DNA of 64,000 nucleotides from contig OZ252293.1 in assembly GCA_965250185.1 (NCBI GenBank), positions 2,247,862-2,311,861 on the forward strand, read 5' to 3'. Of this stretch, positions 3,809 to 49,868 are shown piece after piece (the stretch's first letter is position 1; every line of letters begins with the position of its first letter). The position numbers and the translations under genes are program-made. Under the pieces are notes generated by a model, which worked only from the letters and a program-made list of their open reading frames with translations, searched no databases and was not told the origin of the DNA. The DNA comes from Vicinamibacterales bacterium. Its GTDB lineage: Bacteria > Acidobacteriota > Vicinamibacteria > Vicinamibacterales > G965250185.

Positions 3809-3917
3809 CGGGAATCCGGTGGTTCGCGTTGTCGTCGCGACCCGGCCGCGACCCGGCTCAGGAGCGTTCCTGGCCCGCGCCTGATACAATCTGGCATCCT
3901 GAATCGGAGGTGATTGA

Positions 3918-4277: not shown

Positions 4278-4321
4278 GAGCCGTTTGGTGGGTGGTGCTC
4301 GAGGGGAGTGCGTTGGTGGGG

Positions 4322-5803: not shown

Positions 5804-5850
5804 CACAGGGCACACGCACAGGGGTCAGCGCCAAACGCCCAAAACGACCA

Positions 5851-5910
5851 CCCACCACTCACGACCCACCATTCACCATTCACCATTCACCATTCACCAT
5901 TCACCATCCC
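5851..5910. repeat. C/A-rich tandem array ending in (CACCATT)x5, directly abutting the ATG at 5911
   Basis: cccaccactcacgacccaccattcaccattcaccattcaccattcaccattcaccatccc, read directly. Confidence 0.9.
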
Positions 5911-20970: not shown

Positions 20971-20996
20971 GGATCCGCCTCACACTTCCCCAAGAA

Positions 20997-21072
20997 CCAT
21001 TCAACACTCAGCATTCGACATTCAGCATGCAGCATTCAACATTCAACACTCGACATTCAACATTCGACATTC
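20997..21072. repeat. (CATTCRA/CATTCAG-like) heptamer array between two minus-strand genes, abutting the stop at 21073
   Basis: ccattcaacactcagcattcgacattcagcatgcagcattcaacattcaacactcgacattcaacattcgacattcc. Confidence 0.9.
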
Positions 21073-22422: not shown

Positions 22423-22428
22423 ATCCGA

Positions 22429-24135
22429 TCACCGGCTCGTCCGCAGGTCCAAGGAGCGACGGACAACTCCAGCCTTCTCCGACCATGCCACCACGGTCGC
22501 GGTGGCCGGGGCGCTCGGATCCACCGGCCGCACGGTCCACCGTACGGGCGGAGCCGTTGCCGCTCGGCCGTCCCGGGCGCCCGGCAGGAAGTCGAGTGTG
22601 CGCCGGCTGTCGCCAGTCACCAGCTCCGCGTTGTCGAGCTCGAGGCGTAACTCGGGCGGTCGCGCGGTCTCTAGCACGAAGCGGGCGTGCGCCGTCGCCG
22701 TCGACATCCAGCCTACATTGCCCGCCGTGGCCTCGACCGTGACGCCGTCCACCGTGGGCTCGGCACGTGCGTCGACGATCACCAGCCGGGGAAGCCGCTC
22801 GGCGAACGACAGGACCCAGCGCGCGTTGCGCTCGAGTTCTTCTTCGATCAGGCGCTCGGGTGGGTTCGAGACCGACCAGCGGTCCCAACCGCCCAGCTCG
22901 ACTTCCCCGAGCTGCGGGTGGTCGAATCGATACCAGTCGATGAATCCCTGGCCGCCGAGCGTCTCGGCATCCCAGGCAAAGAGCGCGGTGCCGCCCCGTT
23001 GCATGGGATGCTTCCACATCTCGGTCGTCATCGCCAGGACGCCGAAGACGTTGGACGCCCAGTCGTTGAAGACACCGTGGCCGGGGCTCATCAGGTCGAC
23101 GATCGGCTGTTTCTCGAACGCGTAGTGGTCGTAGCCGGTGAGCTCGATCCCTCGACGAGCGATGGCATCGTAGTCGTCGAGATCGGCCTGTGGGAAACCC
23201 CACGCCTGACCGGACAGGGTCGGAAATCTGAGGAGGAGGCCACCGCTCGTGTGGAACGTGTGCACGGCCGCGATCGTCGGACGCGACGTGATGTAGGACA
23301 CGAGTGCGTGCGTTTCCGGCTCCGACAACGGAAACGGCCCCGATGCGAACTGCGCGGCACTCCAGTTCGACGGGAAGTTCCGGTTGAGGTCCACGCCGCC
23401 CACTCGGTCTTCGTTGAACCGACCGTCGCCGTCGTTGTCGATGCCCTCGGTCTCCACGCGGTAGGACGGACCCGCGGCCGCGGAAGGTGATCGTCGCACC
23501 ATCAGTCGTGGCTCGTCTGTCGAGATGACCCACGGACCATCGGGATCGGGCACGCGCATTCGCAGGATTCGGCCGTCCTGGTCCAGGTCCTCCGGTGGGT
23601 CCTCATCGACCCGTCCGTCGTCGTCCTCGTCCGTGGGGCGGGCGTTCCAGCGATGGTTCTCCGGCGTCGCGGTCGAGATCACGCGGCCGTCGGGATTGAC
23701 GACAGGCACGATGAAGAATGTCCGGGTGTCCATGAGCTCGCGGACGGCGGGATCCGTTTCATAGCGACGGAGCAGGAGGTCGATCATGTACAGGGCGGCC
23801 TCCCCGCCAAGCAGCTCGCCGCCATGAATGTTGCCGTCGATGTAGAACCCCGGCTTGTCCGCGCTCGGCCCGGTCTCGGGATTGTTGATCTCGACCGCGT
23901 AGATCGGACGACCCTCCCGGCTTCGACCGATCTCGATCAGGGTGGACAGTCGATCGTGGGCTGCGGTCAGTTGTTGGAGGACGCTGAGAATTTCGGGATA
24001 CGTGTGATACCGGTCGAAACCGATCGACGCGTCGGTCGATTGTCCGCGTCCCGCGATCGTCCAGCCGGCCACCGTCGCGACCACGATGAGGATCCCGGCT
24101 CGACTCGACCGACGCCGCCGGTCAGGGTTCCGCAT
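22429..24135 (-). CDS. M14 family zinc carboxypeptidase
   Basis: FDRYHTYPEI..., zinc motif GNIHGGE, later FHTSGG. ATG 24135 (MRNPDRRRRSS...) preferred to TTG 24144. Confidence 0.9.
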   Translation of the reverse strand: MRNPDRRRRSSRAGILIVVATVAGWTIAGRGQSTDASIGFDRYHTYPEILSVLQQLTAAHDRLSTLIEIGRSREGRPIYAVEINNPETGPSADKPGFYIDGNIHGGELLGGEAALYMIDLLLRRYETDPAVRELMDTRTFFIVPVVNPDGRVISTATPENHRWNARPTDEDDDGRVDEDPPEDLDQDGRILRMRVPDPDGPWVISTDEPRLMVRRSPSAAAGPSYRVETEGIDNDGDGRFNEDRVGGVDLNRNFPSNWSAAQFASGPFPLSEPETHALVSYITSRPTIAAVHTFHTSGGLLLRFPTLSGQAWGFPQADLDDYDAIARRGIELTGYDHYAFEKQPIVDLMSPGHGVFNDWASNVFGVLAMTTEMWKHPMQRGGTALFAWDAETLGGQGFIDWYRFDHPQLGEVELGGWDRWSVSNPPERLIEEELERNARWVLSFAERLPRLVIVDARAEPTVDGVTVEATAGNVGWMSTATAHARFVLETARPPELRLELDNAELVTGDSRRTLDFLPGARDGRAATAPPVRWTVRPVDPSAPATATVVAWSEKAGVVRRSLDLRTSR

Positions 24136-25525
24136 ATGCACCAAGCTGCAGGGTGGCCGTGAGGGTCAGCTCCCGGCCGTTTCGGCTCACGAGCAGGGCG
24201 TAGTCGCGCGGAGTGCCGGTGAGCTCCCTCAGGAGCCAGCCATGCAGGACGTCGAGGCCTCGACCCACGAAGAACGGCTCGTCGTCCACCTCGAGCAGGA
24301 GGTCGCCCGGCTGGAGGTTGGACGCGGCGAACGGGGACTGATCGTCCACCGCGTCGATGCGTACCGCGGCGCGCTCCCCCGGTAGGGTCACGTCGTCGAC
24401 CTCGGTGGTCAGGGTGCCCTCGAGGCCCAGGGACGGGAAGCGCTCCTCGAGCGCTCGAACCGCGTACATCTCCCAGAACGAGAGCGTGCCTTCGTCGTGC
24501 CGAGGTGTCAGCGTCGTCCAGAGGCGCTGGCCCTCGGCGATCGACGTCTCCCACTGCGGGATTTCGACGTCGAGCACCGCCGAGAATATCCTGCCGGTGT
24601 CTCCGAGGCGCTTCGCCTGGTCGACGGCGACCCAGACCGAGCGATCGACGCGACGATCCTCCACCTGGATGCCATTGATTCTGACCTGCACCGGACGGTC
24701 GAGGTCGACCAGGCGATCGTGCAGGAACAGGCGGATGCGTCGTGCCCACCGGACTGTCACGTCGATCTGGTTCTCGGCCGGTACGACCGATGCTCGCACG
24801 ACGGCTTGCCGAGTGTCTGGCTCGATCCAGTAGAACCTCCGCGCCGGGGCCACGATGCCGTGATGGGGTACGCGCAGCACGGTCCGGGGATAGACGGCCC
24901 GCGGTCGGTCGGCCAGCCAACGGAGGACGTCGGGGTAGTGCTCCTCGAAGCCCTCGTGTGAACGCTCACCGAACTCGCGATAGGTGACGTCGTAGCCGAA
25001 CGTCGTGAGGATGGCGTTCAGCGCGCGCGGTCCGTCGATCGCGCGGATGTTCTGATCGCGCTCCCCCTCGAGCACGTAGGTGGGCACATGCGTCAGGTTT
25101 CGGAGCAGGTGCTCGCGCGACTCGCCCTCGGTCGACACGGGCACGATGGCTGCTAGCCGATCCGGCATGGCGGCCGCGTAGGCGATCGAGAAGTTCGAGC
25201 CGAGCGAGATGCCCGTGGAGACGACGCGATTTGGGTCGACGCGGTACCGCGTGCAAATCCCGGCGATGGCGGTCAGGACATCCTCGGGGCGCAGCACTTC
25301 GTATGGCAGCCGATCCTCGGTTCGCGGGGCGACCGCGACGACGCTCGTCATGACCGGGGCGGCGACGATCCAGCCGGCCGCGTCGGCCGCCTGGCTCCAG
25401 GCCTGCAGCATGCGCTCGGCTCCCTGGCGCGCCTGGTCGGCGTTGCCTGGTGGGCCGCCGTGCATCGCGATGAGCAGCGGCCAGCTCGTCTCGTCGTGAT
25501 ACCGCGACGGCAACTCGACGATCAT
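24122..25525 (-). CDS. alpha/beta hydrolase (esterase/peptidase) with C-terminal PDZ-like domain; possibly the 3' part of a frameshifted gene
   Basis: PLLIAMHGGPPG oxyanion region, nucleophile elbow TGISLGS, C-terminal NLQPGDLLLEVDDEPF (PDZ-like). ATG 25525 overlaps the upstream ORF's stop as ATGA. No signal peptide of its own. Confidence 0.8.
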   Translation of the reverse strand: MIVELPSRYHDETSWPLLIAMHGGPPGNADQARQGAERMLQAWSQAADAAGWIVAAPVMTSVVAVAPRTEDRLPYEVLRPEDVLTAIAGICTRYRVDPNRVVSTGISLGSNFSIAYAAAMPDRLAAIVPVSTEGESREHLLRNLTHVPTYVLEGERDQNIRAIDGPRALNAILTTFGYDVTYREFGERSHEGFEEHYPDVLRWLADRPRAVYPRTVLRVPHHGIVAPARRFYWIEPDTRQAVVRASVVPAENQIDVTVRWARRIRLFLHDRLVDLDRPVQVRINGIQVEDRRVDRSVWVAVDQAKRLGDTGRIFSAVLDVEIPQWETSIAEGQRLWTTLTPRHDEGTLSFWEMYAVRALEERFPSLGLEGTLTTEVDDVTLPGERAAVRIDAVDDQSPFAASNLQPGDLLLEVDDEPFFVGRGLDVLHGWLLRELTGTPRDYALLVSRNGRELTLTATLQLGAYAEP

Positions 25526-25857
25526 GAGCAGTTGCCGTCCTCGGGCAGTGTGATGTCGAGTTCTTCCCTGAGCGCCGGACTCTCCCGGTCTTCGAACCTG
25601 CGCCCTGCGCGCAGGACCGCCTCGGTCTCGTGAAAGGCCATGCGCGTGACGGCCGCCAACGTCGTGTCGTTCTGGAGCGAACGGCAGGCGGTGGTCCTGG
25701 CCGCCGCGTCCTCCGACCAGAGGCACGCGCGTATCCGATCGTCGACTGCGGGCTGCGCGAGCGGTCGCGATCCGAGGACGGTCGTGAGAGCCAGGGCGGC
25801 AACGACCGCCCCTGTCGATCGGGAGACGCGCGGAGCAGTTGCAGGTGGGCAGCGCAT
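25522..25857 (-). CDS. signal-peptide ORF (111 aa), probably the N-terminal part of the esterase gene
   Basis: MRCPPATAPRVSRSTGAVVAALALTTVLGSRPLAQP signal. Ends ...LDITLPEDGNCS*, while the next frame continues RQLLMIVELPSRYHDE, the usual strand preceding the esterase core. Confidence 0.5.
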   Translation of the reverse strand: MRCPPATAPRVSRSTGAVVAALALTTVLGSRPLAQPAVDDRIRACLWSEDAAARTTACRSLQNDTTLAAVTRMAFHETEAVLRAGRRFEDRESPALREELDITLPEDGNCS

Positions 25858-31065: not shown

Positions 31066-31815
31066 TCAGAAAACGTACGAGATGGCCATCACGATCGCGA
31101 TGTCGTTCTTCTTGATGTCCGGCGTTGGCGGCGCGTTTTTGAAGCTGTCGAGGAACTCGATGCTGAGCTGGCTGCGCGCCGTGATGGCCGTCACGAGCCC
31201 CGCCCTGAAGGTATAGAGTCCGTCGTTGAAGTCGTTCATCTTCCACAGCGCCGAGACCGATTGCGTGACCGAGGACGTCTCGGACAGCTGCAGATCGAAC
31301 CGCTCGCCGGCCGTCACGGCACCGCTCGTGAGCAGTTCGAACCCCGGATTCCTCTCCCACACGACGCCGACGCCGCCGTCCACCGACAGCAGCGCGACGT
31401 CGGTCATGTAGAGCTTGTGGCCGACCCCTGCCGTCGGGGCGAGGAGGTAGTCGATCGACTTGAAGGTGTCGCGTAGGTAGTCGATCTGCCCGAAGAAGAA
31501 CGTGCGTTCGGAGTAGGAGTACTCGTCCCGAAAGGCGAACGCCGAACGGTTGACGATCGTCTCACCGTCATTCGAGCCCCGCAGGTAGAGTCCATCGGCC
31601 CTGATGATGTTCTTCGTGGAGGGGTCCCGAACCAGCTCGAACCCCAGATTGAAGTTGCTGGTGTCGGCGTTTCCGCTGGTCAGTGCAAGTCCGGCGCCGA
31701 CCTTCCCCTGCCAGAGCGGCGTCGCTTCGGCCGGGGCCTCCTGGGCGAGGGCGGGTTCCACCAGACCACCGAACGAAAGAACCGACAGGACGGCGAAACG
31801 GGCGAGTGATCCCAT
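31066..31815 (-). CDS. DUF481-like outer-membrane beta-barrel protein
   Basis: Signal MGSLARFAVLSVLSFGGLVEPALA, alternating beta-strand pattern, C-terminal ...AISYVF. Confidence 0.8.
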   Translation of the reverse strand: MGSLARFAVLSVLSFGGLVEPALAQEAPAEATPLWQGKVGAGLALTSGNADTSNFNLGFELVRDPSTKNIIRADGLYLRGSNDGETIVNRSAFAFRDEYSYSERTFFFGQIDYLRDTFKSIDYLLAPTAGVGHKLYMTDVALLSVDGGVGVVWERNPGFELLTSGAVTAGERFDLQLSETSSVTQSVSALWKMNDFNDGLYTFRAGLVTAITARSQLSIEFLDSFKNAPPTPDIKKNDIAIVMAISYVF

Positions 31816-32073
31816 GAGGCCATTATCCTTGTGAGCCGCATCTCCGCGCGCAACCCTCCCCGTCGTGCGGGTCCAGTCACGACGCCGGCGGCTGGTGTAT
31901 GTGGACCCGAGCGGGTAGACGAAGGTCACACGCGCCCGGTAGTGGCACCCTAGATCAACTTTCGGGGCGGCGCTCTCGTCCAATCACTCAGACATTCGAC
32001 TGGGACGCGCTCGGCCTCGGACGACCCGCGTGTCCGCGGCCGAGACGGAGGGATGAGTACGGGGGGATGAGTC

Positions 32074-32970
32074 ATGAACAGGAACATGTTGCGGCACTCG
32101 ATTAGCCGGGTCGTCGTCGGAGCGGCGATTCTCGGCCTGATCCCGGCGATGCTGCCGGCGGCGGCGATGGCACAGACCGAGGGCTCCTTCGAGCGCACGC
32201 TCCAGGTGGACGGGCCGGTGGACCTGGACGTCGCCACTGGCTCAGGGGACATCACGATTCGAGCCGGCGGTGACGGTGAGGTGCAGATCACGGGTCGGAT
32301 GCGCCCTAGCTCCGACTGGCGCCGGGACACCGAGCAGGTCGCGGAGACCATCCGCGCCCTCGAGCAGGACCCGCCGATCGAGCAGACGGGCAACACGATT
32401 CGGGTCGGCCACATCGACGACCGGGACCGTCGCGAGGGGCTTCGGATCAGCTACGAGATCACGGTTCCGACCCAGACCCGCGCCGAGTCGCACACCGGAG
32501 CCGGCAGCCAGACAATCGCCGGCATCGCCGGCCCGCTCGACGCCGGCGCTGGGTCCGGCAGCCTGGAGCTCACGGACATCGGAGGCGACGTCGAAGCCAA
32601 CGCCGGCTCCGGGACCGTGACGATCGACGGGGTCGAGGGCGACGTCGAGGCACGCACCGGTTCCGGCTCGATCCGGATCGACGGCCTCACAGGCGGCCTG
32701 GACGCCCGAACCGGAAGCGGCAGCATCACCGTCGAGGGGGTGCCCGTCCGCGAATGGTCGCTGCGTGCTGGCTCCGGCACTCTGACAGTCGACATTCCGG
32801 ACGACACGGCGTTCGATCTGCGTGCCAGGACGAACTCCGGCGGGATCGACTCCGATCATCCGATCACCGTGCAGGGTCGCATGGGTCGCCGCACGTTGGC
32901 GGGCAGCGTACGTGGTGGCGGCGTGCTCCTGGACCTGTCCACCGGCTCGGGCAGCATCCGGATACGGTAA
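32074..32970 (+). CDS. DUF4097-type beta-strand repeat protein (putative adhesin fold)
   Basis: Signal peptide. Many G[ST]GS[IL]x[IV] repeats (TGSGSIRIDG, TGSGSITVEG, GSGSLELTD). Confidence 0.8.
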   Translation: MNRNMLRHSISRVVVGAAILGLIPAMLPAAAMAQTEGSFERTLQVDGPVDLDVATGSGDITIRAGGDGEVQITGRMRPSSDWRRDTEQVAETIRALEQDPPIEQTGNTIRVGHIDDRDRREGLRISYEITVPTQTRAESHTGAGSQTIAGIAGPLDAGAGSGSLELTDIGGDVEANAGSGTVTIDGVEGDVEARTGSGSIRIDGLTGGLDARTGSGSITVEGVPVREWSLRAGSGTLTVDIPDDTAFDLRARTNSGGIDSDHPITVQGRMGRRTLAGSVRGGGVLLDLSTGSGSIRIR

Positions 32971-33239: not shown

Positions 33240-35045
33240 CTACTGAATCAGCACGTTCGCGGTCGCCAGCTTCTCGCCGACCTCGAACAGGTTCCCCCAG
33301 ACGATGTTGCGTGCGTCACCCCAGACGATGTGGTTTGCCCACGCATCGATGTTCTGGTAGACCGTGTCGCCCCACACGATGTGGTCGCCCCACACGATGT
33401 GCTGCGCCCAGGTGTACGTCTGGCCGTTGAGCGCCGTGCTCGGGTTCACCGGCCCAGTCAGCCACCACTGGTCGGCCGGCGCCGACGGGTCGATGGCGCG
33501 TGCCAGCTCGATCGCGCCAACCGGATTGAGCGTCCCCGTGCCCTGCGTCAGCGCGTCGTGCGGCACACCCTGCGCGTCGGACAGCGGAATGGCGCTGAAC
33601 TGCAGGATCGCCTTGACCGCGTTCGGCGTCAGATTGCGGTTAGCTTCGAGCAGCAGCGCCACCGCGCCGCTCGTCACGCCCGTGGCCATGCTCGACCCAC
33701 TCAGCACCAGGTAGTCGTGCCCGCCCGTGCCCTTCACACTGGTCGCGATTCCCGCCAGGTAGCTCGACTCCTGCGTCTCGGACGGCAGCCGATGGCCAGG
33801 CGCCACGAGATCCGGCTTCGCGAACCCGTCGTACCATGTCGGCCCGCGCGAGCTGTATGCCGCCACATGGTCGTCGGTCAGCTGGGTCGTCCCCTTCGTG
33901 TCGACCGAGCCCACCGTGATCGCCGACGGCGCGTTGCCCGGCGACGTCAGGCCGGCGTAGCCGACCTCGCCCGTCTCCGGGTTCTGACCGATGTTCCCCG
34001 CCGAGGCCACCACGACGATCCCCGCCCGCACAGCCGCCTCGACCGCCTGCACCAGTGGGTCCGATGCCGCCGGCTCGAAGATCGGATGCCCCAGGGACAG
34101 GTTGATGACGTCGATCCCGAGTGCGGCTCGATTCTCGACCGCGAACTCGACCGCCGCGATCACGTCGCTCGTCCGGCCCGACCCGTTCTCCTTGAGCACC
34201 CGCAGGCTGATCAGCCGTGCGTCCTCGGCCATCCCGCGATACTTGCCTCGCGAGTGGTCGCCGCTGCCTGCGATCAGACCAGCCACGTGCGTCCCGTGGC
34301 CGTAGGCGTCGCTCGGGCTCACGGCCACCGGCCCGCCCGGCACCGTGAAGTCGTAGGCATGTGTCAGGTTGAAGGCTGACGAATCTCCCACGATGCCAGA
34401 GTCGATCACCGCGACCCCGATCCCCTGGCCACTGCCCATCGCCGACGTCAGCCCGAAGATCTCCCGCAGCCGCAGGTCACTCGAGCTCGTCGATGTCGAG
34501 CCAGACGACGAGCCGCCGCGCTTCTTCTTCCGCGCGGCCGTGACCTTGGCGTCGATGGACATCGACTCGATGTTCGGATCTGCCGCCAGCGCCGCCAGGT
34601 CGTCCGCGTGGACGTTCACCGTGACGGCATCGAGCAGCGCGTGCTCCGTCTGCACCACGCCGTCCCGGGCCGCCACTGCATCGACGACGCCGGCCATGTT
34701 GGCCTCGGAGGCCTGGATGATCACCTTCACCGACCGGCGCGTCGCGGTCGTCTGCGCGAGCTCTGTCACCAGGGCTTCGTCCAGCTTCGCCAACTGGGTA
34801 GCATTCAAGTCGGACACCGTCGGCTGAGTCGTCGTCGTCTGGGTCGTCTGGGTCGACGTGCCCTTCTTCTCCTTCTTCTTCTTCTTCGCTTCCCCGACCG
34901 TCGGGGTCAGCAGCAGACCAATCGTCAGGAGCGCGGCCAGGCCGCGTCGCCAGTTGGGAGTCATCCTGTCCAGTCCCTTCGTCATTGTTCGCTCCGTCGC
35001 GTTCAAACTTGGCTTCGTCGTCATGTCGTTTATGTTGGATGTCAT
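33240..35045 (-). CDS. S8 family serine peptidase (subtilase) with C-terminal xVWGD repeats
   Basis: Catalytic D (VAVIDSGI), H (HGTHVAG), S (SGSSMATG). AGGAGG 5 nt upstream of ATG 35045. C-terminus HIVWGDHIVWGD...HIVWGDARNIVWGN. Confidence 0.9.
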   Translation of the reverse strand: MTSNINDMTTKPSLNATERTMTKGLDRMTPNWRRGLAALLTIGLLLTPTVGEAKKKKKEKKGTSTQTTQTTTTQPTVSDLNATQLAKLDEALVTELAQTTATRRSVKVIIQASEANMAGVVDAVAARDGVVQTEHALLDAVTVNVHADDLAALAADPNIESMSIDAKVTAARKKKRGGSSSGSTSTSSSDLRLREIFGLTSAMGSGQGIGVAVIDSGIVGDSSAFNLTHAYDFTVPGGPVAVSPSDAYGHGTHVAGLIAGSGDHSRGKYRGMAEDARLISLRVLKENGSGRTSDVIAAVEFAVENRAALGIDVINLSLGHPIFEPAASDPLVQAVEAAVRAGIVVVASAGNIGQNPETGEVGYAGLTSPGNAPSAITVGSVDTKGTTQLTDDHVAAYSSRGPTWYDGFAKPDLVAPGHRLPSETQESSYLAGIATSVKGTGGHDYLVLSGSSMATGVTSGAVALLLEANRNLTPNAVKAILQFSAIPLSDAQGVPHDALTQGTGTLNPVGAIELARAIDPSAPADQWWLTGPVNPSTALNGQTYTWAQHIVWGDHIVWGDTVYQNIDAWANHIVWGDARNIVWGNLFEVGEKLATANVLIQ

Positions 35046-35054
35046 GACGGCCTC

Positions 35055-37050
35055 CTAGTACTGGACGTGAGTCGCGCCGGCGTCACCACTCAGCTCGCCC
35101 CACACCAATCGGTCCGCATCCGTGACCTCGCCCCACACGAGCCGGTCACCCCAGATCACGCGATCGCCGTCCACGTAGCCGACCAGGCTGCTGCCCCAGA
35201 CGATGCGGTCGCCCCAGACCAGCCGGTTGCTCATCACGAGGCTCTCGCCCCACATGATCCGGTCGCCCCACACGAGGCGGTCGCCCCAGATGACCCGCTG
35301 GTCGAACGCCGGGTCGTTGACGTAGATCTGGTCGCCCCAGACCAGCCGGTCGCCCCACACGAGGCGCCGCGCCCAGGCCTGCACCTCGCCGCCGATCACG
35401 CTCGTCTCGAGCGTCATCTCGGTGCGCCACACCTCGCCCTCGGGCACGCGTGGGTCGAGCGTCATCGCCAGGGCGATCGCCCCGTCGGCATTGACGGCCC
35501 CGGCACCCTGCGTCAGCTCGTCGTAGCCCGGCAACTCGGTCGCCGTGTACTGCAGGATCGCCTTGACGGCGTTGGGTGACAGCGGCGGGTCCACCCGGTA
35601 CTGCTTGTCCACCTCGACGCCGAAGGCCTGGGCATTGGCGTCGAGGATCAGGGCCACCACCCCGCTCGTCACCGCCGCCGCCATGCTCGTCCCGCTCAAC
35701 TTCAGATACTGCTGGTTCCCCAAGCCGAACATGACGTCGAGTTGCAGGTTCGGGTTCTGCAGAAACAGCGAGCTCGCCTCGCTTCAGGGCATAGAGCTGC
35801 GTCCCGGGCGCCACCACGTCCGGCTTGGCGTAGGCGTCATACCAGGTCGGCCCCCGCGAGCTGAACGCCGGCACGACGTCGTCGCTCCGGCTGGCCGTGC
35901 CCATGATGTCCACCGCCCCGACCGTGATGGCCGACGGCGCATTGCCCGGCGACGTGATGCCGGCATAGCCGACCTCGTCGGTGTCCGGGTTCTGGCCGAT
36001 GTTGCCGGCCGAGACCACCACCACCAGCCCGGCCCGCACGGCCGCCTCGACGGCCTGCACGAGTGGGTCGGTCGCCGCCGGCTCCATGATCGGATGCCCC
36101 AGCGAGAGGTTGAGAATGTCGAGGTCGAAGTGGTCCTTGTTCGCCACGGCGAACTCGATGGCCCGGATGACATCGCTCGTGCGGCCTTCGCCGTGGGCGT
36201 CCAGGACCTTGAAGCCGTACAGCTTCACGTCCGGCGCCACGCCGCGGAACTCGCCCATCGACGAGCGGGCCGCGTTGGCGATCAGGGCCGCGACGTGCGT
36301 CCCGTGCCCGTAGTCATCGTAGGGGGCGGTCGCCACCGGGGTGTCGCCCTGCGTGAAGTCGTAGAAGCCATGGACCCGCCGGAGGTCCTGCTTGTCGAAC
36401 TCGAGCCCCGAGTCGATCACCGCCACCCGGATGTTGCCCTGCCCATCGAACATGGCGAGCTCATCGTCGAGCCCGAGGGCGGTCAGCATCAGGTTCGAGT
36501 CGACGATCCCGAGGCTCGCGAAGTCGATTGCGTCGGGGCTCGGCTCCGGAGCAAATGGCGCCCCGAGGTTGGTCCCGTCGTTGTTGTTGATGGTGCCGGA
36601 GGGCGTGGTGTCCGTGTTCTTGTTCTTGCCCTTGGCTTTGCCCTTGCTCTGGCCGGCGGCCCGGACGATCGCATCGGCCGAGACGCGCATCACGTCGGGA
36701 TGCGCGGCCAGCCCGGCCAGGTCGTCACCGTGAACGACGGCGCTCAGGGCGCCGATCGATGCATGGTTGCCCTTGACCACATTGCCGTGCGCCTCGAGCT
36801 CGGTCTTCAAGGCCTGGCGCCGACCCGACTTGGTCGTGATGATCACGCGCTGGGCCTGCGTCTCGTGGTTGGCGACCTTGGCCCGTAGCCGCGTGTCGAG
36901 CTTCGTCAGGTCACGCTCGACGACCGGGGCCGAAGCCTCGGTGGCGGGGCGAGCCGGCGCCTTGGCCTTCTTTTTCTTGGCCTCGGCGGGCAGGCCCACC
37001 AGGCCGGTCATCAGTCCGACGACGACGACGTGTCGAATCAGTTGGTACAT
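35055..37050 (-). pseudogene. S8 family serine peptidase paralog, frame broken near 35781-35786 (or sequencing error)
   Basis: D (VAVIDSGL) and H (HGTHVAA) are in ORF 35146..37050. The catalytic-Ser part (SGTSMAAAVTSG) and 11 xVWGD-type repeats are in ORF 35055..35732, in the +1 frame. The junction APGTQLYALK / SEASSLFLQNPN aligns with the paralog. Confidence 0.75.
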
Positions 37051-37679: not shown

Positions 37680-39119
37680 CTAAACCCTGCCGAAGGCGAC
37701 CGATCCGGTGAGGTCGTGCTCTCCGGTGGCAATCATCCACGAGACGGCCTTGGACGGCAGGAACGACTCGCGAATGAATCCACGGTTCGCGACCTGCCGA
37801 ACCTCCCACTCCATCCGGTCGCGATAGACGCGGAAGATTCGATACGAGTTCGGCCACTCGACGAATGCGGCGTTCTGGATATGGGTAAGACCGTCGACGA
37901 CGTTGACTTCGTCCCAGTGGTCGTGGCCGTTGAGGGTGGCGAAGACGTTGGGGGCCGCACGCACGATGTCGAGCACGGCCTCCTTGCCGAGTTCGCTCCA
38001 CGTCGAGACGGCACCCCGGTTGTACGGGGCGTAGTGCCAGACGACCACGGTCGGCGTCGTGGTATCGGCCGCGAGCGTCTCGCGCAACCAGGCCCGCTTG
38101 TGCGGCTGCATCACCGGTTCCTCGATCTCGACGTCGAGCACGACGAACCGCAGTGGCGGCTTCATGAAGCTGTAGTCCAGCTGGCCACCGGGGAAGTGGT
38201 CGGCGAGTAGTTCGCGGGCATCCGGTCGTGAGGTCACGAGATAGCGATCATGGTTGCCGATGCAACCGTAGACCGGGAGCGGCTGCGACTTCAGGACGCC
38301 AGCCATCAGGGCGAACTCTTCCCTGAGCGCTCGCTCGGTCATGTCCCCCGCGTGCATGACGAAATCGATGCCCTCGGCCGCCAGCGCGTGCAGCGTCCGC
38401 GCGAATTCCGGAGCCGTGGCGGCGCCCATCTTCCGATTCATCCAGTCCTCGCGGCCTTCGAAGCGCAGATGGGTGTCTCCGATCAGCGCGAACCGGTACA
38501 GTGGAGATTCGACGGATCGCTCGCTGGCTTCGAGCGTGAGGGAAACGAGACGGCCACCAGTGCGAAAGTGGGGTCCCGCGACGGTCAGGTAGTGGCGCCC
38601 CTCGGGCAGCAGCCACTCGCCGAGCGCGACTGTCCGGGGCGGTTCGCCGCCCGTCACCACCGGCGCCGGGTCGGTCACCTCGTCGATGCCCCACTCCGGA
38701 GCCGAGACCATCGGCGCGCTGACGAGCGTTGTGTCCGAGAGTACCGAGACCCGGAGGCCCGGTCTCAGGTCGGGAGGCGCCTCGAGCTCGATCTGGCCGG
38801 TGACGTACGTTGCCTGCGCCACGTCGACCGCGAACACTGCGAGACCATCTGGTGTGATACTCGCACCGGAGGACCGGGCGGCTTCGACCTCTGCGTTGGT
38901 GAGACCGGACGCGAGCGCGGCGGAAGAACCGTCGAGGCGCACTCGCGATCCGGGTCGCACCGACACGGCCCGTCGGTCCGCATCGTCGCGCAGCCGACGC
39001 TCGAGCTCGGGGTAGACGTCGATCGGCGTGCCGGCGCCCGAGAGCGACGTCTGACCAGTCAGCCCAGCGCCGAGGCCGAGCGCCATCGACGTCAGAAAAT
39101 CGCGCCGGGTCGGAGACAT
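37680..39119 (-). CDS. Tat-secreted metallophosphoesterase (calcineurin-like)
   Basis: MSPTRRDFLTSMALGLGAG twin-arginine signal. GDTHL, HAGDMTE, GNHD and GHDH phosphoesterase motifs. Confidence 0.85.
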   Translation of the reverse strand: MSPTRRDFLTSMALGLGAGLTGQTSLSGAGTPIDVYPELERRLRDDADRRAVSVRPGSRVRLDGSSAALASGLTNAEVEAARSSGASITPDGLAVFAVDVAQATYVTGQIELEAPPDLRPGLRVSVLSDTTLVSAPMVSAPEWGIDEVTDPAPVVTGGEPPRTVALGEWLLPEGRHYLTVAGPHFRTGGRLVSLTLEASERSVESPLYRFALIGDTHLRFEGREDWMNRKMGAATAPEFARTLHALAAEGIDFVMHAGDMTERALREEFALMAGVLKSQPLPVYGCIGNHDRYLVTSRPDARELLADHFPGGQLDYSFMKPPLRFVVLDVEIEEPVMQPHKRAWLRETLAADTTTPTVVVWHYAPYNRGAVSTWSELGKEAVLDIVRAAPNVFATLNGHDHWDEVNVVDGLTHIQNAAFVEWPNSYRIFRVYRDRMEWEVRQVANRGFIRESFLPSKAVSWMIATGEHDLTGSVAFGRV

Positions 39120-39140
39120 AGGTGTTCGTGCCTGTTGCGT

Positions 39141-39217
39141 ACGTAGCGCGCCGGCTCTAACCAAGCGCCAGCGTCACGCGGGTTCGAGATCCGCTCGGCT
39201 GAAGCCTCGCGCTACGT
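39141..39217 (-). repeat. REP-like palindromic element (full copy, inverted relative to 37591)
   Basis: The reverse complement reads cgtagcgcgaggcttcagccgagcggatctcgaacccgcgtgacgctggcgcttggttagagccggcgcgctacgt and aligns along its length with 37591-37665. Confidence 0.85.
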
Positions 39218-39232
39218 GATCTTTCAAACGAT

Positions 39233-39311
39233 CCACCATTCGACATTCCCATTCGACATTCCCATTCGACATTCCCCATTCGACATTCTCCATTCGACAT
39301 TCTCCATTCAC
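39233..39311. repeat. (CCATTCGACATT-like) 12-13-nt tandem array x6, abutting the stop at 39312
   Basis: ccaccattcgacattcccattcgacattcccattcgacattccccattcgacattctccattcgacattctccattcacc. Confidence 0.9.
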
Positions 39312-40313
39312 CTATCTCCCCGGCTCCATCACAGGCTGTGTCCACGCGAGGAGGCCGTTCGAGTCGAGGATCTTCGTTCGCACGTAGCGCTCGCGACCGG
39401 TGAAGTCGTAGCTCGCGCTGGGGGTGGCGACTTCTTTCAACACGGCACCGCCCTCGCCGATGAACTGGACTCGATACTTCGCGTCGCTGTTCGGCGTGAC
39501 TGCGAGGCTCATTCGGCTTTCGGAAACCTCGTACTCGTCTAGCTCGACGCCGGTCGAAGCGTAGAAGTCGCCGCGCTCGAGCGCGGCCATGATGGCGTCG
39601 GCGGCGAGCCGTTCGGCCTTGACCGAGACCCACCCTCGGCCCGGGCGCGGCGCGTTCGGGTTCCACGGCTGCTTGAAGACGTGCGCATCGTCGACGGCGA
39701 TACCGTAGAGCAGGATGCCCCGAGAGAGGATGTCGTCCCAGATCTCCTCCAGCCCGGGTATGCCGCCTCCGCCGGCATTGTTCACGGCGGGGTGACCGTT
39801 GTAGATCTCGAGCAGACGGTTATTGCGAACCTGGGCCAGCTCGTCGGTCGTGATGGCCCAGCGGAAGTTGGGATGGTTGATGTGGGGGACTCCGTCGGCG
39901 GCGCGGATCGCGTCCACGTTACGTTGAATCGCCTCGACGACCGTGCGGCCGTCCTGCGCCTCGACGAACCGTTTCACGTCGAGACCGTTGATGTGGATCG
40001 GCTTGGCGGCGTGAGGCGACGTCACCTCCTCGCCCGGGATGACCAGGAACTGCTCGTCGGCCCCGTAGAGCGCGTTGAGGCCGTCCACGCTCGTCAGGAA
40101 GTTGTGATCGGTGAGCACGAGGAAGTCATACCCCTGCTCGCGATACCAGCGCACGACCTCGTCAGGCGTACTGTCGCCATCGCTATTCAGCGTGTGGGTG
40201 TGCGTGTTGCCCTTGTACCATCGGGTTAGTTCGTCGCCGGGTGGCTCCTGGCCGGGGATGGCGGTGGCGAAGAAGGCCAGGGCGAACAACGTGAGCAGGG
40301 CCGAGCGACTCAT
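39312..40313 (-). CDS. PHP-domain-like metallohydrolase (CehA/McbA family)
   Basis: KGNTHTHTLNSDGDSTPDEVVRWYREQGYDFLVLTDHN. Signal peptide MSRSALLTLFALAFFATA. Confidence 0.8.
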   Translation of the reverse strand: MSRSALLTLFALAFFATAIPGQEPPGDELTRWYKGNTHTHTLNSDGDSTPDEVVRWYREQGYDFLVLTDHNFLTSVDGLNALYGADEQFLVIPGEEVTSPHAAKPIHINGLDVKRFVEAQDGRTVVEAIQRNVDAIRAADGVPHINHPNFRWAITTDELAQVRNNRLLEIYNGHPAVNNAGGGGIPGLEEIWDDILSRGILLYGIAVDDAHVFKQPWNPNAPRPGRGWVSVKAERLAADAIMAALERGDFYASTGVELDEYEVSESRMSLAVTPNSDAKYRVQFIGEGGAVLKEVATPSASYDFTGRERYVRTKILDSNGLLAWTQPVMEPGR

Positions 40314-40359
40314 GTGTACTCCTCTGGCGCCCTCGCGGCGGGCTGCGCTGGCGTCCCGT

Positions 40360-42030
40360 TCAGCGCTGCGTGGTGTTATCCGCCGGGCCGGAGACGGTCG
40401 GCGGCGTTACGTCCGCCTCGCCCAGGGCTTCGCTGAGCACGCGCCCGTCCGGCCTGGCCAGCGTGACTCCCGTCAGGAACGCGAGGGTCGGCGCGATGTC
40501 GGCGGGGCTCGCGGCCGCGTCGTACTGGCCGGGGCGAATGCCCGCGCCGTGGAAGAGGATCGGCACGCGCGTGTCGTAGTCGTAACCCGTGCCGTGCCCG
40601 GCCGCGTTTCCCGAGGTCGTCCAGTAGATCTTCGGGATCACGGTCAGGTCGCCGCTACGGTCCGGCACGTGGCTGAGGGCGATTGCTCGCTCGACGGGCC
40701 GCGACGAGTCGCGCAGCCCGGGCACGTCTTCGGCTCGATACACGGTCTGCACACCCGGGACGGCCTCGATGGCCTCGATGGCCGCGCGCAGCGCCAATGG
40801 CGCTCGGTCCAGCCTCTCGTACACCCCAGGCTCGAAATACAGCTCGGTGTGATTGATGCGCGCGACATGTGGGCCCGGCCCGAGATGGGGGCGCAGGGCC
40901 TCGTCGACGCGCGACCTCACGAGCTTGACGTCGAGTCGCCCCGCGTCGAATCCCATCCCCGCCAGCTGTTCCGGAATCGGCGAGACGCCGTGGTCAGCAG
41001 TCAGTGCCAGCACGTACCGGTCGCTGCCGACCACCTCATCCAGATGAGCGATCAGCGCGCCGAGCGTCTGGTCGAGCCTCATCAGCGTGTCCTGGAGCTC
41101 GTGGCTGCGGGACCCGTAGTCGTGTCCCACTCGATCCAGGGCGGAGAAGCTGATCGCGAGGTAGTCGGTCCGATCCCCTTGACCCAGCTCGAACTCGTCG
41201 ACTGCCGCGACGGCCAGGTCGGCGAGATACCGATCCGAGAACGGGCTTCGGCTCCAGCCCCGGTAGAACCAGCGATCCGGCATGGTCGCTTCGCCGCCCA
41301 GCGTGTGGGGGAACTCGTCGCCCCAGTCAGCCTCCGAGTCCGACTCCGGAGTCGAGGTCGGATACCTGTACGCCGACTCCGGTTGCACGCGATCCCACAC
41401 CGTCCCGAACTCACGCTCGATTGGACGATTCGCCAGGAACCGCTCGATGAACGGGCTGAGGCCGTCACCATAGGCCGAGCTTGTTGCGAGGCTGCGGCCC
41501 TCGAACCAGGTCACCGAATCCGCCTCGTGCCCGGCGAGCATGACCGCCGAGCGCACCTTGAGCGACAGGCTCACAATCTTGGGAGGCACGGGCAGCTGGA
41601 TTCGCATCTCGTCCGATATCGTCGGAACCCGGAGCTTGCGCGCACTGTGTCCGCCGGTCCGCGGTTCTCCGTAGCTCAATGTCCGGGCTCGTTCATCATC
41701 CGTGCAGTTGACGAGCGCGGCGCGGTCGCGGTCGTACCACTCGTTCATCAGTTGTCCGTGCGTCGGCGGCAGCGTGCCGGTCACGATGGTGGCGTGTCCA
41801 GCGCATGTCACGGTCGCGAAGTATGGATACGCGGCCTGCCGGAACCACGCGCCCTCGTCCATGAGGCGGGCAAGGCCCTGGCTCCACTGGTGGCGGAAGC
41901 GCGTGAGGTAGTCGGCACGCAGCTGATCGACGACGAGGACGACGACGAGCGACGGTGGAGCGGGTGCTTGGGCCTTCACGGTCGACACGAGACCCGTAGC
42001 GATCAGGAGGGCCAAAGCGATTCGTCTCAT
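40360..42030 (-). CDS. alkaline-phosphatase-superfamily phosphodiesterase/nucleotide pyrophosphatase (NPP type)
   Basis: Signal MRRIALALLIATGLVSTVKA, VVVLVVDQLRADYL, nucleophile region TVTCAGHATIVTG. Occupies the 3' third of the 1385-aa ORF 40360..44517. Confidence 0.85.
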   Translation of the reverse strand: MRRIALALLIATGLVSTVKAQAPAPPSLVVVLVVDQLRADYLTRFRHQWSQGLARLMDEGAWFRQAAYPYFATVTCAGHATIVTGTLPPTHGQLMNEWYDRDRAALVNCTDDERARTLSYGEPRTGGHSARKLRVPTISDEMRIQLPVPPKIVSLSLKVRSAVMLAGHEADSVTWFEGRSLATSSAYGDGLSPFIERFLANRPIEREFGTVWDRVQPESAYRYPTSTPESDSEADWGDEFPHTLGGEATMPDRWFYRGWSRSPFSDRYLADLAVAAVDEFELGQGDRTDYLAISFSALDRVGHDYGSRSHELQDTLMRLDQTLGALIAHLDEVVGSDRYVLALTADHGVSPIPEQLAGMGFDAGRLDVKLVRSRVDEALRPHLGPGPHVARINHTELYFEPGVYERLDRAPLALRAAIEAIEAVPGVQTVYRAEDVPGLRDSSRPVERAIALSHVPDRSGDLTVIPKIYWTTSGNAAGHGTGYDYDTRVPILFHGAGIRPGQYDAAASPADIAPTLAFLTGVTLARPDGRVLSEALGEADVTPPTVSGPADNTTQR

Positions 42031-42060
42031 CAAGACAGGATACCGCAGGTGTGGGCTAGA

Positions 42061-44424
42061 ATGACGATCGAACTGCCGTCCCCCCGGGCCCCACCGCCAA
42101 TGACACCGACGTCGCCGTTTCGCATCGCGTCCGCGCTCACCGCACTGTTCACCCTCGCAGCCGGATCGCCGGCCGTGGTCTGCGGCCAGGCGCCCGATGA
42201 TCCTAATGTCGGTCGCGTCATACGTGGACCGAGTCCGCCCGCCCTTCCGGCGATCGTGGCTCGCGACGCCGCAGGGCGCGTCACGATGCGGGCGACGCGG
42301 CTGCCCGAGGGACTCGTGCTCGATGGGCGGCTCGACGAGCTCGCCTACCAGACCGTCCCCGCCGTGAGCGGCTTCGTTCAGCAGGAACCGGTCGAAGGTG
42401 ACCCGGCCACGGAGAAGACGGAGGTCTGGGTCTTCTTCGACGAGCGCAACGTGTACGTGTCGGCACGCATGTGGGACAGTCATCCCGAACGCATCGTCGC
42501 GAACGAGATGAGACGCGACAACCGCGGCATCTTCCAGAACGACAGCTTCGGCGTCGCGTTCGACACCTTCTACGATCAGCGCACGGGTTTTTTCTTTCAG
42601 ACGAACGCCCTGGGCGGCCTGCGCGAGGGACTGGTCGTCACCGAGGGCAACATCAGCTACGACTGGAACACGGTCTGGGACGTGGCCAGCGGGCGATTCG
42701 AGCAGGGTTGGGTCACCGAGATCTCGATCCCGTTCAAGTCGCTCCGATGGCAGGCGAGTCGCGACCAGGTGTGGGGCGTGAACTTCCGCCGGGTCGTGCG
42801 CTGGAAGAACGAGCTGTCCTACCTGAGCCAGATTCCGGCGTCCTGGGGCGGCCGCGGCATCTCGAAGTTCTCGTCGGCCGCGACGATGGTCGGTATCCAG
42901 CCACCCTCCAGCTCGCGCAACCTGGAGCTGAAGCCCTACGCGATTTCCGATGTCACGACCGATGTCACGGTCGACCCGGTGCGGTCGAACGACCTGGGCG
43001 GCGATTTCGGATTCGATGCGAAGTACGGCATCACGAAGAGTCTGACCTTCGATTTCACATACAACACCGACTTCGCCCAGGTCGAGGATGACGACCAGCA
43101 AGTCAACCTGACCCGTTTCAGCCTGTTCTTCCCGGAGAAGCGGGAGTTTTTTCTCGAGGGACAGGGCATCTTCGAGTTTGGAGGTGCTCGATCCGGTCGG
43201 CGGGGCGGCGGGGGCGGAGGCGGGGGCGGGTTCGGTCCGCCCACCCAGACACCGGTCCTGTTCTTTAGTCGGCGCATCGGCCTCCAGGATGGCGACACGA
43301 TTCCCATTCAGGCCGGCGGCCGAGTCACCGGGCGCGTCGGTCCGTACCTGGTCGGTCTGCTGAACATCGGCGCCGAGTCGCGGGCCTCCGCTGGCGCCCT
43401 GGCCACCAACTTCACCGTCGTGCGCGTCCGGCGCGACATCCTGCAGCGCAGCAGCATCGGCGTCATCATGACGAATCGGTCCAAGATGCTCGAGGGCATC
43501 GGATCGAACCAGGTGTACGGGGTCGACGGGAATCTGTCGCTCCATCAGGACCTCGAGATCCAGGCCTACTACGCGCGCACGAAGACGACTGGGCGCACTG
43601 GCGACGACTCCAGCTATCGTGCCGCGTTCAACTACAACGCCGATCTGTATGCGCTGCAGTACGAGCACCTCAAGGTCGGCGTCGACTTCAACCCGGAGAT
43701 CGGCTTTCTGCGACGCGATGACTTCAGGCGGAATTACCTCGGGGGCCGAATCAGTCGTCGCCCCGCGTCGATCGCGTCCATCCGGAAGATCGGCCTCTCC
43801 GGTAACGTCGACCGCATCGCGAACGGTTCGGGAGCGCTCGAGTCTCGACGTCAATCGATCGACTCGCGAATCGAGTTCGCTGGCGGCGACCAGATGAACG
43901 TCGAGTACAACAGGGACTTCGAATTGCTCGAGGAGCCATTCGAGATTGCCGATGACGTTGTACTGCCTGTCGGGGGGTACGGCTTCCAGAACGCCCGAGC
44001 CACCTACACGCTCGGCCCTCAGCGAAAGATCACCGGTGGCGCCAGTGTGGCGTACGGAAGCTTCTGGTCCGGGCACCAGAGTTCCGCTGGCTACTTCGGG
44101 CGTGTCGAGCTGTCGCCTCAGCTCTCGATCGAACCGCGCGTCTCGATCAACTGGGTCGACCTGCCCGAGGGCAGCTTCGTGGCGAAGCTGGTGAGCGCCA
44201 GGACCACGTACACGGTCTCGACCCGGATGTTCGTCGGCGCCCTCATCCAGTTCAACTCGAGCAGCGACTCGCTCACTTCGAACATTCGTCTCCGCTGGGA
44301 ATACGAGCCAGGCAGCGACCTCTTCGTTGTCTACTCGGAGGGCCGAGATACCCTGGGACCCGGCAGACCGGGCCTCGAGAATCGAGGCGTCGTCGTCAAG
44401 TACACGAAACTCTTCCGGTTCTAG
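42061..44424 (+). CDS. DUF5916 / carbohydrate-binding-family-9-like outer-membrane protein
   Basis: Signal region then GLVLDGRLDE..Y....A.SGFVQQEP.EG. Beta-rich, C-terminal ...YTKLFRF. ATG 42061 (or 42100). Occupies the 3' part of the 1437-aa ORF 40111..44424. Confidence 0.8.
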   Translation: MTIELPSPRAPPPMTPTSPFRIASALTALFTLAAGSPAVVCGQAPDDPNVGRVIRGPSPPALPAIVARDAAGRVTMRATRLPEGLVLDGRLDELAYQTVPAVSGFVQQEPVEGDPATEKTEVWVFFDERNVYVSARMWDSHPERIVANEMRRDNRGIFQNDSFGVAFDTFYDQRTGFFFQTNALGGLREGLVVTEGNISYDWNTVWDVASGRFEQGWVTEISIPFKSLRWQASRDQVWGVNFRRVVRWKNELSYLSQIPASWGGRGISKFSSAATMVGIQPPSSSRNLELKPYAISDVTTDVTVDPVRSNDLGGDFGFDAKYGITKSLTFDFTYNTDFAQVEDDDQQVNLTRFSLFFPEKREFFLEGQGIFEFGGARSGRRGGGGGGGGGFGPPTQTPVLFFSRRIGLQDGDTIPIQAGGRVTGRVGPYLVGLLNIGAESRASAGALATNFTVVRVRRDILQRSSIGVIMTNRSKMLEGIGSNQVYGVDGNLSLHQDLEIQAYYARTKTTGRTGDDSSYRAAFNYNADLYALQYEHLKVGVDFNPEIGFLRRDDFRRNYLGGRISRRPASIASIRKIGLSGNVDRIANGSGALESRRQSIDSRIEFAGGDQMNVEYNRDFELLEEPFEIADDVVLPVGGYGFQNARATYTLGPQRKITGGASVAYGSFWSGHQSSAGYFGRVELSPQLSIEPRVSINWVDLPEGSFVAKLVSARTTYTVSTRMFVGALIQFNSSSDSLTSNIRLRWEYEPGSDLFVVYSEGRDTLGPGRPGLENRGVVVKYTKLFRF

Positions 44425-44527
44425 GGAGGGCGAGTGGGGCAAGTGGGGCAAGTGGGGCGAGTAAGGCGAGGGAGGCGAGTGGGGACACACCGCGATACCC
44501 GTGCTCGCTCTCCCCACTTGCCCTATT
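44425..44527 (-). repeat. nonamer-arm/core element, copy 1 (inverted orientation)
   Basis: gggagggcgagtggggcaagtggggcaagtggggcgagtaaggcgagggaggcgagt + core ggggacacaccgcgatacccgtgctcgctctcccc + acttgccctattc. Confidence 0.9.
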
Positions 44528-48399: not shown

Positions 48400-48408
48400 G
48401 CGGCCCGG

Positions 48409-49770: not shown

Positions 49771-49868
49771 GGCGAGCGCTGCGCAGATGAGTCCCGGTGG
49801 CCGCAGCATACCACGGCCGTGGGGCTCTTCTGGTGGCCGAGCCGGACGCGCACGTCTATAATCGTGGC

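Follow-up and report, generated by a model that had tools for sequence, protein, structure and literature searches.

Secreted subtilases of the S8 family may carry non-catalytic, β-rich C-terminal extensions, among them the P-domain, PPC, PKD, and jelly-roll domains. Such accessory domains are generally tied to stability, secretion, or substrate binding. Tk-SP, a subtilisin-like serine protease from Thermococcus kodakarensis, has both a β-jelly-roll domain and a C-propeptide. Its C-terminal domain is stabilized by Ca2+, and its C-propeptide is shed by autoprocessing, as is that of aqualysin I. For short β-repeats, the motif of the grass antifreeze protein LpAFP has been described as NXVXG, in which the X residues are exposed and rows of Asn lie in the core (PMC5744647). 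Here we describe a pair of S8 genes in a 64,000-nucleotide stretch of the genome of a soil acidobacterium, a Vicinamibacterales bacterium (contig OZ252293.1, positions 2,247,862 to 2,311,861; hereafter the window). The two co-directional genes lie on the minus strand at 33240-37050 of the window, and the features of the pair given below are on this strand. Both proteins end in a tail of six-residue units built around Trp-Gly.

In agreement with a preliminary description of two adjacent subtilases, the Pfam family Peptidase_S8 (PF00082) matches the two proteins with 166.3 and 166.0 bits against a cut-off of 21.8, the upstream score being that of the frameshift-corrected sequence. The catalytic motifs VIDSG, HGTHV, GNIG, and G[TS]SMA are present in the window proteins. 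No other Pfam model matches either protein, and NCBIfam gives only sub-threshold S8 subfamily matches for both. The signal peptides are hydrophobic N-termini ending in AEA or GEA, and an I9-like propeptide follows, which is closest in fold to ProN-Tk-SP; the window proteins are not matched by the Pfam I9 model. With middling confidence, we consider both to be Sec-secreted pre-pro-subtilases with a clade-specific, β-rich C-terminal accessory domain for stabilization and/or retention. They are ordinary secreted subtilases, most likely for extracellular protein scavenging, with four parts: a signal peptide, the I9-like N-propeptide, a catalytic domain with Asp, His, Asn, and Ser, and the clade-specific extension. 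The extension appears to be made of a short β-strand motif, [polar]-[I/L/V]-V-W-G-[D/N/S/T].

Repeat tails and their distribution among S8 subtilases

The repeat array of the upstream protein, delimited by regular expressions, Tandem Repeats Finder (TRF), and a shuffle test, spans residues 562-652 (35094..35366). It contains 10 strict units (RLVWGD four times, RVIWGD and RLVWGE twice each, RIMWGE, and RIVWGS) and three degenerate ones (QIYVND, SLVMSN, and SLVGYV). The earlier figure of at least 11 is thus corrected to 10 strict copies, or 13 units when the degenerate ones are counted. The array overlaps a conserved first module at residues 540-590 (35280..35432), which was delimited on an AlphaFold2 (AF2) model built with a 122-sequence alignment and reads W...W-A-R-RLVWGD-RLVWGD-QIYVND-PAFDQ-RVIWGD. 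Across the 122 sequences W559 is invariant, and W541, W565, G572, W582, W588, and G589 are nearly so. The downstream protein has a short tail at residues 549-585 (33291..33401), identified by translation and by 18-bp DNA copies: HIVWGD-HIVWGD-TVYQNIDAWAN-HIVWGD-AR-NIVWGN. Its four strict units (HIVWGD three times and NIVWGN) match the four copies counted earlier, and no degenerate units were noted. This tail amounts to the conserved first module with one unit added, and it aligns collinearly with the beginning of the longer tail in its closest homolog (P0008).

The repeat tail is real and far beyond chance. In 20,000 shuffles, [VIM]WG occurred about 0.2 times on average (maximum 4) for the upstream protein, which has 10, and about 0.15 times (maximum 3) for the downstream protein, which has 4. 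The units are also visible in the DNA. TRF detected an 18-bp period at 35193-35288 of the upstream gene with 5.3 diverged copies, and the same period at 33366-33409 of the downstream gene includes two perfect copies at 33366-33401. The shuffle test and the conservation among homologs thus bear out that the C-terminal repeat is genuine, conserved, and unusual.

A search with the full-length downstream protein gave more than 4558 homologs at E≤1e-30. Most are unnamed or called 'serine protease AprX' or 'S8 family peptidase', and they come from Acidobacteria or Vicinamibacterales metagenome-assembled genomes (MAGs). Identity is 52-58% to the nearest genomes, which are Vicinamibacterales/Acidobacteriota MAGs, with a few hits in other phyla. 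Among the 120 best homologs, 118 have three or more [aliphatic]-W-G units within the C-terminal 40% of their length (median 8, at most 16), and the other two carry no copies. The copies, 3-16 per protein, follow the pattern [N/H/R]-[ILV]-V-W-G-[DNST]. The rarity of the tail had therefore been overestimated. Its apparent rarity in direct searches, where the upstream tail retrieved only 7 proteins in phmmer and a heptad tail only 24 short open reading frames (ORFs), was a sensitivity artefact of word-index and bias-filter limits.

The family unit has the consensus D-[N/H]-I-V-W-G-[D/N/S/T]. D, N, S, or T follows the Gly in 85% of the units in the top 120 homologs. Units are spaced by 6-17 residues; 6 is the commonest spacing, 8, 9, 10, 11, 12, 15, and 17 are frequent, and different spacings are mixed within single proteins. 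The tails share an architecture. They start with W-[AS]-Q-x-IVWGD-x-IVWG-x-x-x-Y-x-N-x-x-AW-x-x-x-IVWG, continue with a variable middle and an L-x-G-x-x-D-G loop, and close with a final VWG-x-L. Beyond this, the homolog tails end in varied, non-hydrophobic sequences, and the C-termini of the window proteins gave no Pfam or NCBIfam match to autotransporter barrel, type IX secretion C-terminal domain, PEP-CTERM, or LPXTG signals.

Many near-identical short units with variable acidic linkers between them could also be the mark of a multi-copy peptide precursor fused to its own protease. The hexapeptides would then be signals or antimicrobials, as in a multi-core ribosomally synthesized and post-translationally modified peptide. 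S8 proteases process such precursors elsewhere, and there is a weak NCBIfam similarity to PatA. We find this barely credible. The conserved start module, the LxGxxDG loop, and the end motif are domain-like, no tailoring enzymes are found among the nearby genes, and the PatA match, at 36 bits where the cut-off is 421, reflects only general S8 similarity.

An exhaustive search with the tail profile returned 728 clusters (50% identity) at E≤0.001. Of its 137 best new hits, 61 match PF00082 and 26 more begin inside the last S8 helices. The rest are about 36 short tail-only fragments and about 14 members of other repeat families (YdcK β-solenoid, bactofilin, and PD40-type propellers). All hits of at least 400 aa that have true VWG units are S8 proteins; all other hits are short fragments or belong to other repeat families. 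The sole different partner seen is a 263-aa TPR-plus-tail protein (P0128). By these sequence comparisons the tail is a clade-specific appendage of S8 subtilases and is not shared widely among proteins. It hardly ever occurs on other kinds of enzyme, which speaks against a generic, portable form of the carbohydrate- or cell-surface-binding module proposed earlier. Given this link to the S8 clade, we think that the tail would be an integrated accessory domain.

The other repeat families among the profile hits, that is, PAIWGDRIVW-blade propellers and YdcK/bactofilin-type solenoids, were set aside as different families with only a short motif in common. Four large surface-type proteins (P0159, P0203, P0209, and P0250) have PD40/β-propeller-type repeats of about 45 residues, PAIWGDRIVWxDxRNGNxDIYMYDL, in which the IWGD-RIVW doublet resembles two consecutive tail units. 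Three small 'MKKYELT...' proteins (P0132, P0189, and P0234) carry long, strictly regular hexapeptide arrays, x-A-x-V-[WYF]-G-[DN]. They have the VWGD string yet appear to be a separate family. Nine hits of the profile search match the Pfam YdcK β-solenoid, and these three are likely among them.

In some relatives (P0149, P0187, P0225, and P0259) a C-x4-C loop stands just before a unit, for example SCGSADCGDNIVWGT. These loops suggest disulfide-stapled turns and an oxidizing extracellular location. Taken with the signal peptides, they support a probable extracellular location of the enzymes.

Comparison with known folds

The window tails gave no Pfam or NCBIfam match at E≤1 and no PDB match, and a text search of the literature for the motif strings gave no relevant paper. 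A PDB match to a silkworm 30K protein (GDRLVWGN, E 3.1) was not significant. The earlier failure to assign the repeat to a named domain thus stands for the window tails, to which no model fits. It does not extend to relatives with a spacing of 7-8 residues, which match the ice-binding family PF21300 (LbR_Ice_bind). P0225, a fragment that carries EDNIVWG heptads on an S8 C-terminus, scores 49.7 bits (E 4e-13, cut-off 30) and aligns unit by unit with the Lolium perenne ice-binding protein (PDB 3ULT, E 2.3e-6). P0108, an S8 relative with 8-residue NDTVIWGS units, scores 29.3 bits. Lower scores were obtained for P0008 (19.8 bits) and P0080 (17.6 bits).

The tail may therefore be viewed as a bacterial version of the grass ice-recrystallization-inhibition β-roll (PF21300, 3ULT), binding a flat surface. 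Two units would form one coil, with Asn and Val turned inward and Ile and Trp covering two flat faces. The family core N-I-V-W-G fits the N-x-V-x-G unit exactly, and the description of the LpAFP motif, the PF21300 scores of P0225, P0108, and P0008, and the alignment of P0225 with 3ULT all favor this view. So do the 6- and 8-residue units mixed in one array, as in P0055.

Several observations make the antifreeze roll rather unlikely for the window proteins. PF21300 does not match either protein or either tail at E≤1. In hhalign, a window-type tail profile (A1) gave a probability of 0.06% against the 3ULT sequence, and neither this profile nor the upstream tail matched 3ULT in searches of the PDB. 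The window units have 6 residues, not the 7 of PF21300, in which a coil takes 14-15 residues. Their Asn position is occupied by Arg upstream and by His (with one Asn) downstream; the Val and Gly of N-x-V-x-G are conserved. Over the family, the position of the 'Asn ladder' varies most (N 41%, H 26%) and the Ile and Trp, which should be exposed, vary least; LpAFP shows the opposite. In the window units the x positions are invariant Ile and Trp, not the variable Thr, Ser, or Val of 3ULT, and the Trp-rich faces are unlike known ice-binding sites. The two-residue connections in the AF2 model are too short to cross a roll, and a periodic motif may match the hidden Markov model by convergence. The settings differ as well, since the window tail belongs to a bacterial protease and the Lolium protein is a plant apoplastic antifreeze.

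The six-residue period recalls the left-handed β-helix (PF00132) and YdcK (PF18836), and the YdcK-type P0189 has xAxVWGD hexapeptides. However, the window tails match neither model, R-L-V-W-G-D cannot be registered with the PF00132 motif [LIV]-[GAED]-X2-[STAV]-X, and a strict 18-residue turn could not accommodate the variable spacing seen in relatives. Like the P-domain, PPC, PKD, and jelly-roll domains, the tail is a C-terminal extension of a secreted S8 enzyme, but none of their Pfam models match, and the tail is an array of short units rather than a fixed globular domain.

The best solved match is Tk-SP (3AFG, 9UES), with a phmmer E of 2e-37, a Foldseek E of 6e-29, and about 30% identity. 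It shares the N-propeptide, the subtilisin domain, and an extra C-terminal β-rich region with the window proteins. It differs in having no x-I-V-W-G-x repeats, and the sequence alignment covers only residues 205-483 of the query. From these comparisons we rate the tail as an accessory extension at the subtilase C-terminus that is related to the NxVxG β-roll distantly and in part.

Predicted structure and possible roles of the tail

The AF2 model of the corrected upstream protein had a mean pLDDT (predicted local distance difference test) of 81 and a predicted template modeling score of 0.82. Residues 50-130 form a β-α-β propeptide with a pLDDT of about 97, the catalytic core is above 90, and residues 141-171 are a low-confidence linker. 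Directly after the catalytic domain, residues 540-590 of the tail reach a pLDDT of 82-97. Four-residue strands are placed at 549-552, 555-558, 562-565, and 568-571 with gaps of 2-3 residues, the last two strands being the first two RLVW units. In the model these first tail strands look like hairpins. The type II' two-residue hairpin turn prefers D, N, S, or T after Gly. Because of the two-residue links in the AF2 model and the D/N/S/T preference after Gly in the family units, we favor a hairpin ribbon over a narrow roll as the structural model for the six-residue units of the window. The earlier guess of a β-solenoid is accordingly divided: the heptad relatives do match PF21300, but the window profile is unlike 3ULT and the predicted strands are hairpin-like.

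Both the fold of the array and the function of the tail are what we infer here. The first approximately 50 residues of the extension are conserved and would form a small β-subdomain directly after the catalytic domain. The array beyond this module changes freely among relatives, with a copy number of 0-16 and a spacing of 6-17 residues, and unit duplication is visible at the DNA level. Tight G-[DNST] turns would join strands of 3-4 residues, as a hairpin meander or a narrow β-roll, and such an array would show rows of Trp and Ile. The accessory role would be to stabilize the mature enzyme, to hold it on the cell envelope, exopolysaccharide, or an insoluble substrate, or both.

Several points weigh against the accessory-domain account. 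The pLDDT falls below 50 at residues 596-664, the distal array, and the isolated tail, modeled with a 9-sequence alignment, gave an unusable pLDDT of 37. The array may thus be disordered, need a partner or a metal ion to fold, or be removed after secretion. In either structural model the Ile-Val-Trp strand would be hydrophobic on both faces, and a soluble monomeric rod is hard to picture; the array would therefore have to pack against itself, the enzyme, or an external surface. The attachment of the tail to S8 enzymes weighs against a role as a generic adhesion module. Such a tail has no solved structure, and the long array of the window may never be expressed, given the frameshift described below.

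A bolder version of the accessory-domain account is that the array is an undescribed β-structure, a ladder of Trp on six-residue units, either as a hairpin ribbon or as a roll with 12-residue coils. It would be an S8-specific tether of soil Acidobacteria proteases to the envelope, exopolysaccharide, or particulate substrate. As such it would be distinct from the left-handed β-helix and the grass antifreeze roll, and the heptad forms would link it to the plant ice-binding fold by descent or convergence. We offer this version tentatively and regard it as doubtful.

The main rival of the accessory-domain account is a C-terminal propeptide, which would serve folding, latency, or outer-membrane passage and would then be autoprocessed. 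Tk-SP is the closest solved relative, and a flexible segment open to cleavage would agree with the low AF2 confidence of the distal array. The copy number is unconstrained, two of the 120 best homologs carry no copies, and in one relative (L025) a TAG stands just before the tail. We nevertheless judge a propeptide unlikely. The first module is highly conserved and confidently placed at the catalytic domain, Trp-Gly is kept strictly over up to 16 units, beyond the needs of a disposable spacer, and no processing-site motif is evident.

The low confidence of the ligand-free model would also fit an RTX-like, Ca2+-dependent β-roll, which would be unfolded inside the cell and fold outside on calcium through Asp/Asn-rich turns. 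D, N, G, and S abound in the turns and linkers (D-[NH]-I-V-W-G-[DNST]), P0051 and P0113 contain regular 10-residue units such as GDNIVWGTxD, and the calcium-stabilized C-terminal domain of Tk-SP offers a precedent. However, the Pfam RTX model (HemolysinCabind) does not match, the period is 6-10 residues (6 in the window) rather than 9, and the GGxGxD motif of the GGxGxDxUx nonapeptides is absent. The proteins have Sec signal peptides, unlike substrates of type I secretion, and Arg and Asp balance each other in charge in the upstream tail. A calcium roll thus seems highly improbable.

Returning to the accessory domain, thousands of S8 enzymes share a conserved tail that, in the form seen here, is absent from family models, structures, and papers. 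Secreted S8 peptidases are treated as markers of soil protein turnover. The tail probably sets the location of the enzyme (free, cell-bound, or particle-bound) or its lifetime, which bears on models of nitrogen mineralization. Acidobacteria are among the most abundant soil bacteria (PMC5900883). A Trp-Gly unit of six residues is structurally unusual, and its variants in spacing shade into the motif of the grass antifreeze β-roll; the tail is a tractable test case for the folding of very short β-repeats.

Frameshift and anatomy of the gene pair

The upstream S8 gene is split over two frames rather than being a single ORF, and Asp, His, and Asn are apart from Ser and the repeats. Frame A starts at ATG 37050, turns Arg/Gly/Pro-rich after ...APGTQLYALK, and remains free of stops to 35146. 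Frame B reads ...SSLFLQNPNLQLDVMFGLGNQQYLKLSGTSMAAAV... and contains the catalytic Ser and all the repeats. As sequenced, a 634-aa ORF with a nonsense C-terminus overlaps a 225-aa ORF with Ser and the repeats. The site (35772..35786) was located from three-frame translations, the family consensus, and 17 relatives. Frame B has a TGA at 35786-35784, so the indel lies between about 35784 and 35772. Dropping one base (e.g., c35781) or restoring two lost bases rejoins ...APGTQLYALK with (S)EASSLFLQNPNL..., and the one-base skip gives a 664-residue protein that aligns with the family along its whole length. Because the loop length here varies among relatives, the lesion may be either an insertion of 1 nt or a deletion of 2 nt.

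A programmed ribosomal frameshift was rejected. All 17 full-length relatives, like the family consensus, run through the site in a single frame, and no slippery motif is recognizable at CTG AAG CGA GGC. A 220-aa relative starting near the site (P0002) had suggested conserved recoding, but its locus is a 5'-truncated, single-frame remnant beside a transposase. The remaining window genes that were scanned match Pfam families as single ORFs. From the comparison with relatives, the frameshift is best explained as a lineage-specific lesion or an assembly error. The gene as sequenced cannot produce an active tailed enzyme, because the frameshift parts Asp and His from Ser and the tail.

Disrupted copies of the family occur in relatives as well, so a real pseudogene in the window is plausible. 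In L025, a TAG (3905-3907) takes the place of the conserved Gln in W-[AS]-Q-x-IVWGD, so that the tail is called as a 75-aa ORF of its own, and a second S8 gene (4299-6525) is frameshifted in a KAAEK-repeat linker. L026 has an in-frame TAA (3953-3955) after GTSMAAGVVSGTVALMID. At L001 (9845-10663), a 5'-truncated copy lies beside a DDE transposase, and its contig neighbors have PSD/PSCyt domains, which we take to be planctomycete-like. The copy at L021 (6318-7100) stops after APGDELIA without Ser or tail, and the product of the next gene is a long repetitive sequence. Further frameshifts of the family are found in long-read contigs. Some of these disrupted copies may be sequencing errors; together they fit a birth-and-death evolution of a multi-copy family. 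As regards annotation, this S8 family is often miscalled, as is evident from the frameshift and from the numerous tail-only ORFs among public sequences.

The 5' segment of the upstream gene in frame A (35782..37050, residues 1-423) is supported by the ORF list, Pfam, and an AF2 pLDDT above 90 for propeptide and core. It starts with the signal peptide (37050-36979) and a Lys-rich stretch (36978-36958). The I9-like N-propeptide follows at about 36903-36661 and then a low-confidence Lys/Gly/Asn linker. The catalytic residues are Asp213 (36414-36412), His249 (36306-36304), and the oxyanion Asn350 (36003-36001). The 3' segment in frame B (35055..35780), called alone as the 225-aa ORF from 35732 to 35055, has a GC content at third codon positions (GC3) of 0.94. 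It holds Ser455 in GTSMAAA (35687-35685), the end of the catalytic domain near 35508, and the stop TAG at 35057-35055.

The downstream gene (33240..35045, 601 aa) is intact according to the ORF list, Pfam, and the motif positions. Its signal peptide ends at Ala53 (34887), and a Lys-rich stretch follows at 34886-34863. The catalytic domain (34430-33537) has Asp215, His250, Asn351, and Ser452 all in one ORF. The start is not certain and may be at 35045, 34985, or 34964. ATG 34985 has its own GGAG 6 nt upstream, ATG 34964 is another candidate, and the first approximately 20-27 codons (34965-35045) have a GC3 below that of the remainder of the gene. Starts at 34985 or 34964 would shorten the signal peptide to a more usual length. 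The Lys-rich stretch noted earlier after the two signal peptides is present in both proteins (EAKKKKKEKKG upstream, EAKKKKAKAP downstream) but is no family feature, as a strict pattern for it matched 0 of the 120 best homologs. Low-confidence linkers between propeptide and catalytic domain (36560-36680 and 34480-34530) are rich in Lys, Gly, Ser, Thr, and Asn. They read AGQSKGKAKGKNKNTDTT... in the upstream protein and ARKKKRGGSSSGSTSTSSS in the downstream protein, and TRF found a 6-bp period at 36625-36647 in the upstream linker region.

The two genes are separated by 9 nt. A Shine-Dalgarno-like AGGAGG (35051..35056), located by sequence 5 nt before ATG 35045, overlaps the upstream stop TAG, as reported earlier. 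The proteins are 48% identical to each other, which indicates an old duplication. Tandem S8 paralogs, 2-4 in a row, are also found in relatives (L005, L016, and L025), and in L025 an Arg-type tail gene is followed by a His/Asn-type gene with a Lys-rich N-terminus, matching the window order. The pair is thus best read as old tandem paralogs, perhaps co-transcribed, and we prefer a tandem paralog array to the 'operon' of the preliminary description. One Acidobacteriota MAG has four tandem S8 paralogs with VWG tails (L005, 4262-12649), and L016 (6001-10125) has two, the second with a frame change near the repeats.

No functional partner of the S8 pair was found among the neighboring genes. The neighborhood (19747-25726, 31066-32970, and 37680-44517) encodes many hydrolases and other likely exported proteins. 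These include a β-lactamase-fold protein, a lipase, an M14 carboxypeptidase, a PDZ protein, a DUF481 protein, a DUF4097 'toastrack' protein, a metallophosphoesterase, a PHP-like protein, and a 1385-aa phosphodiesterase. An amino-acid permease gene and an arginine-deiminase-like gene lie farther along at 47416-49881.

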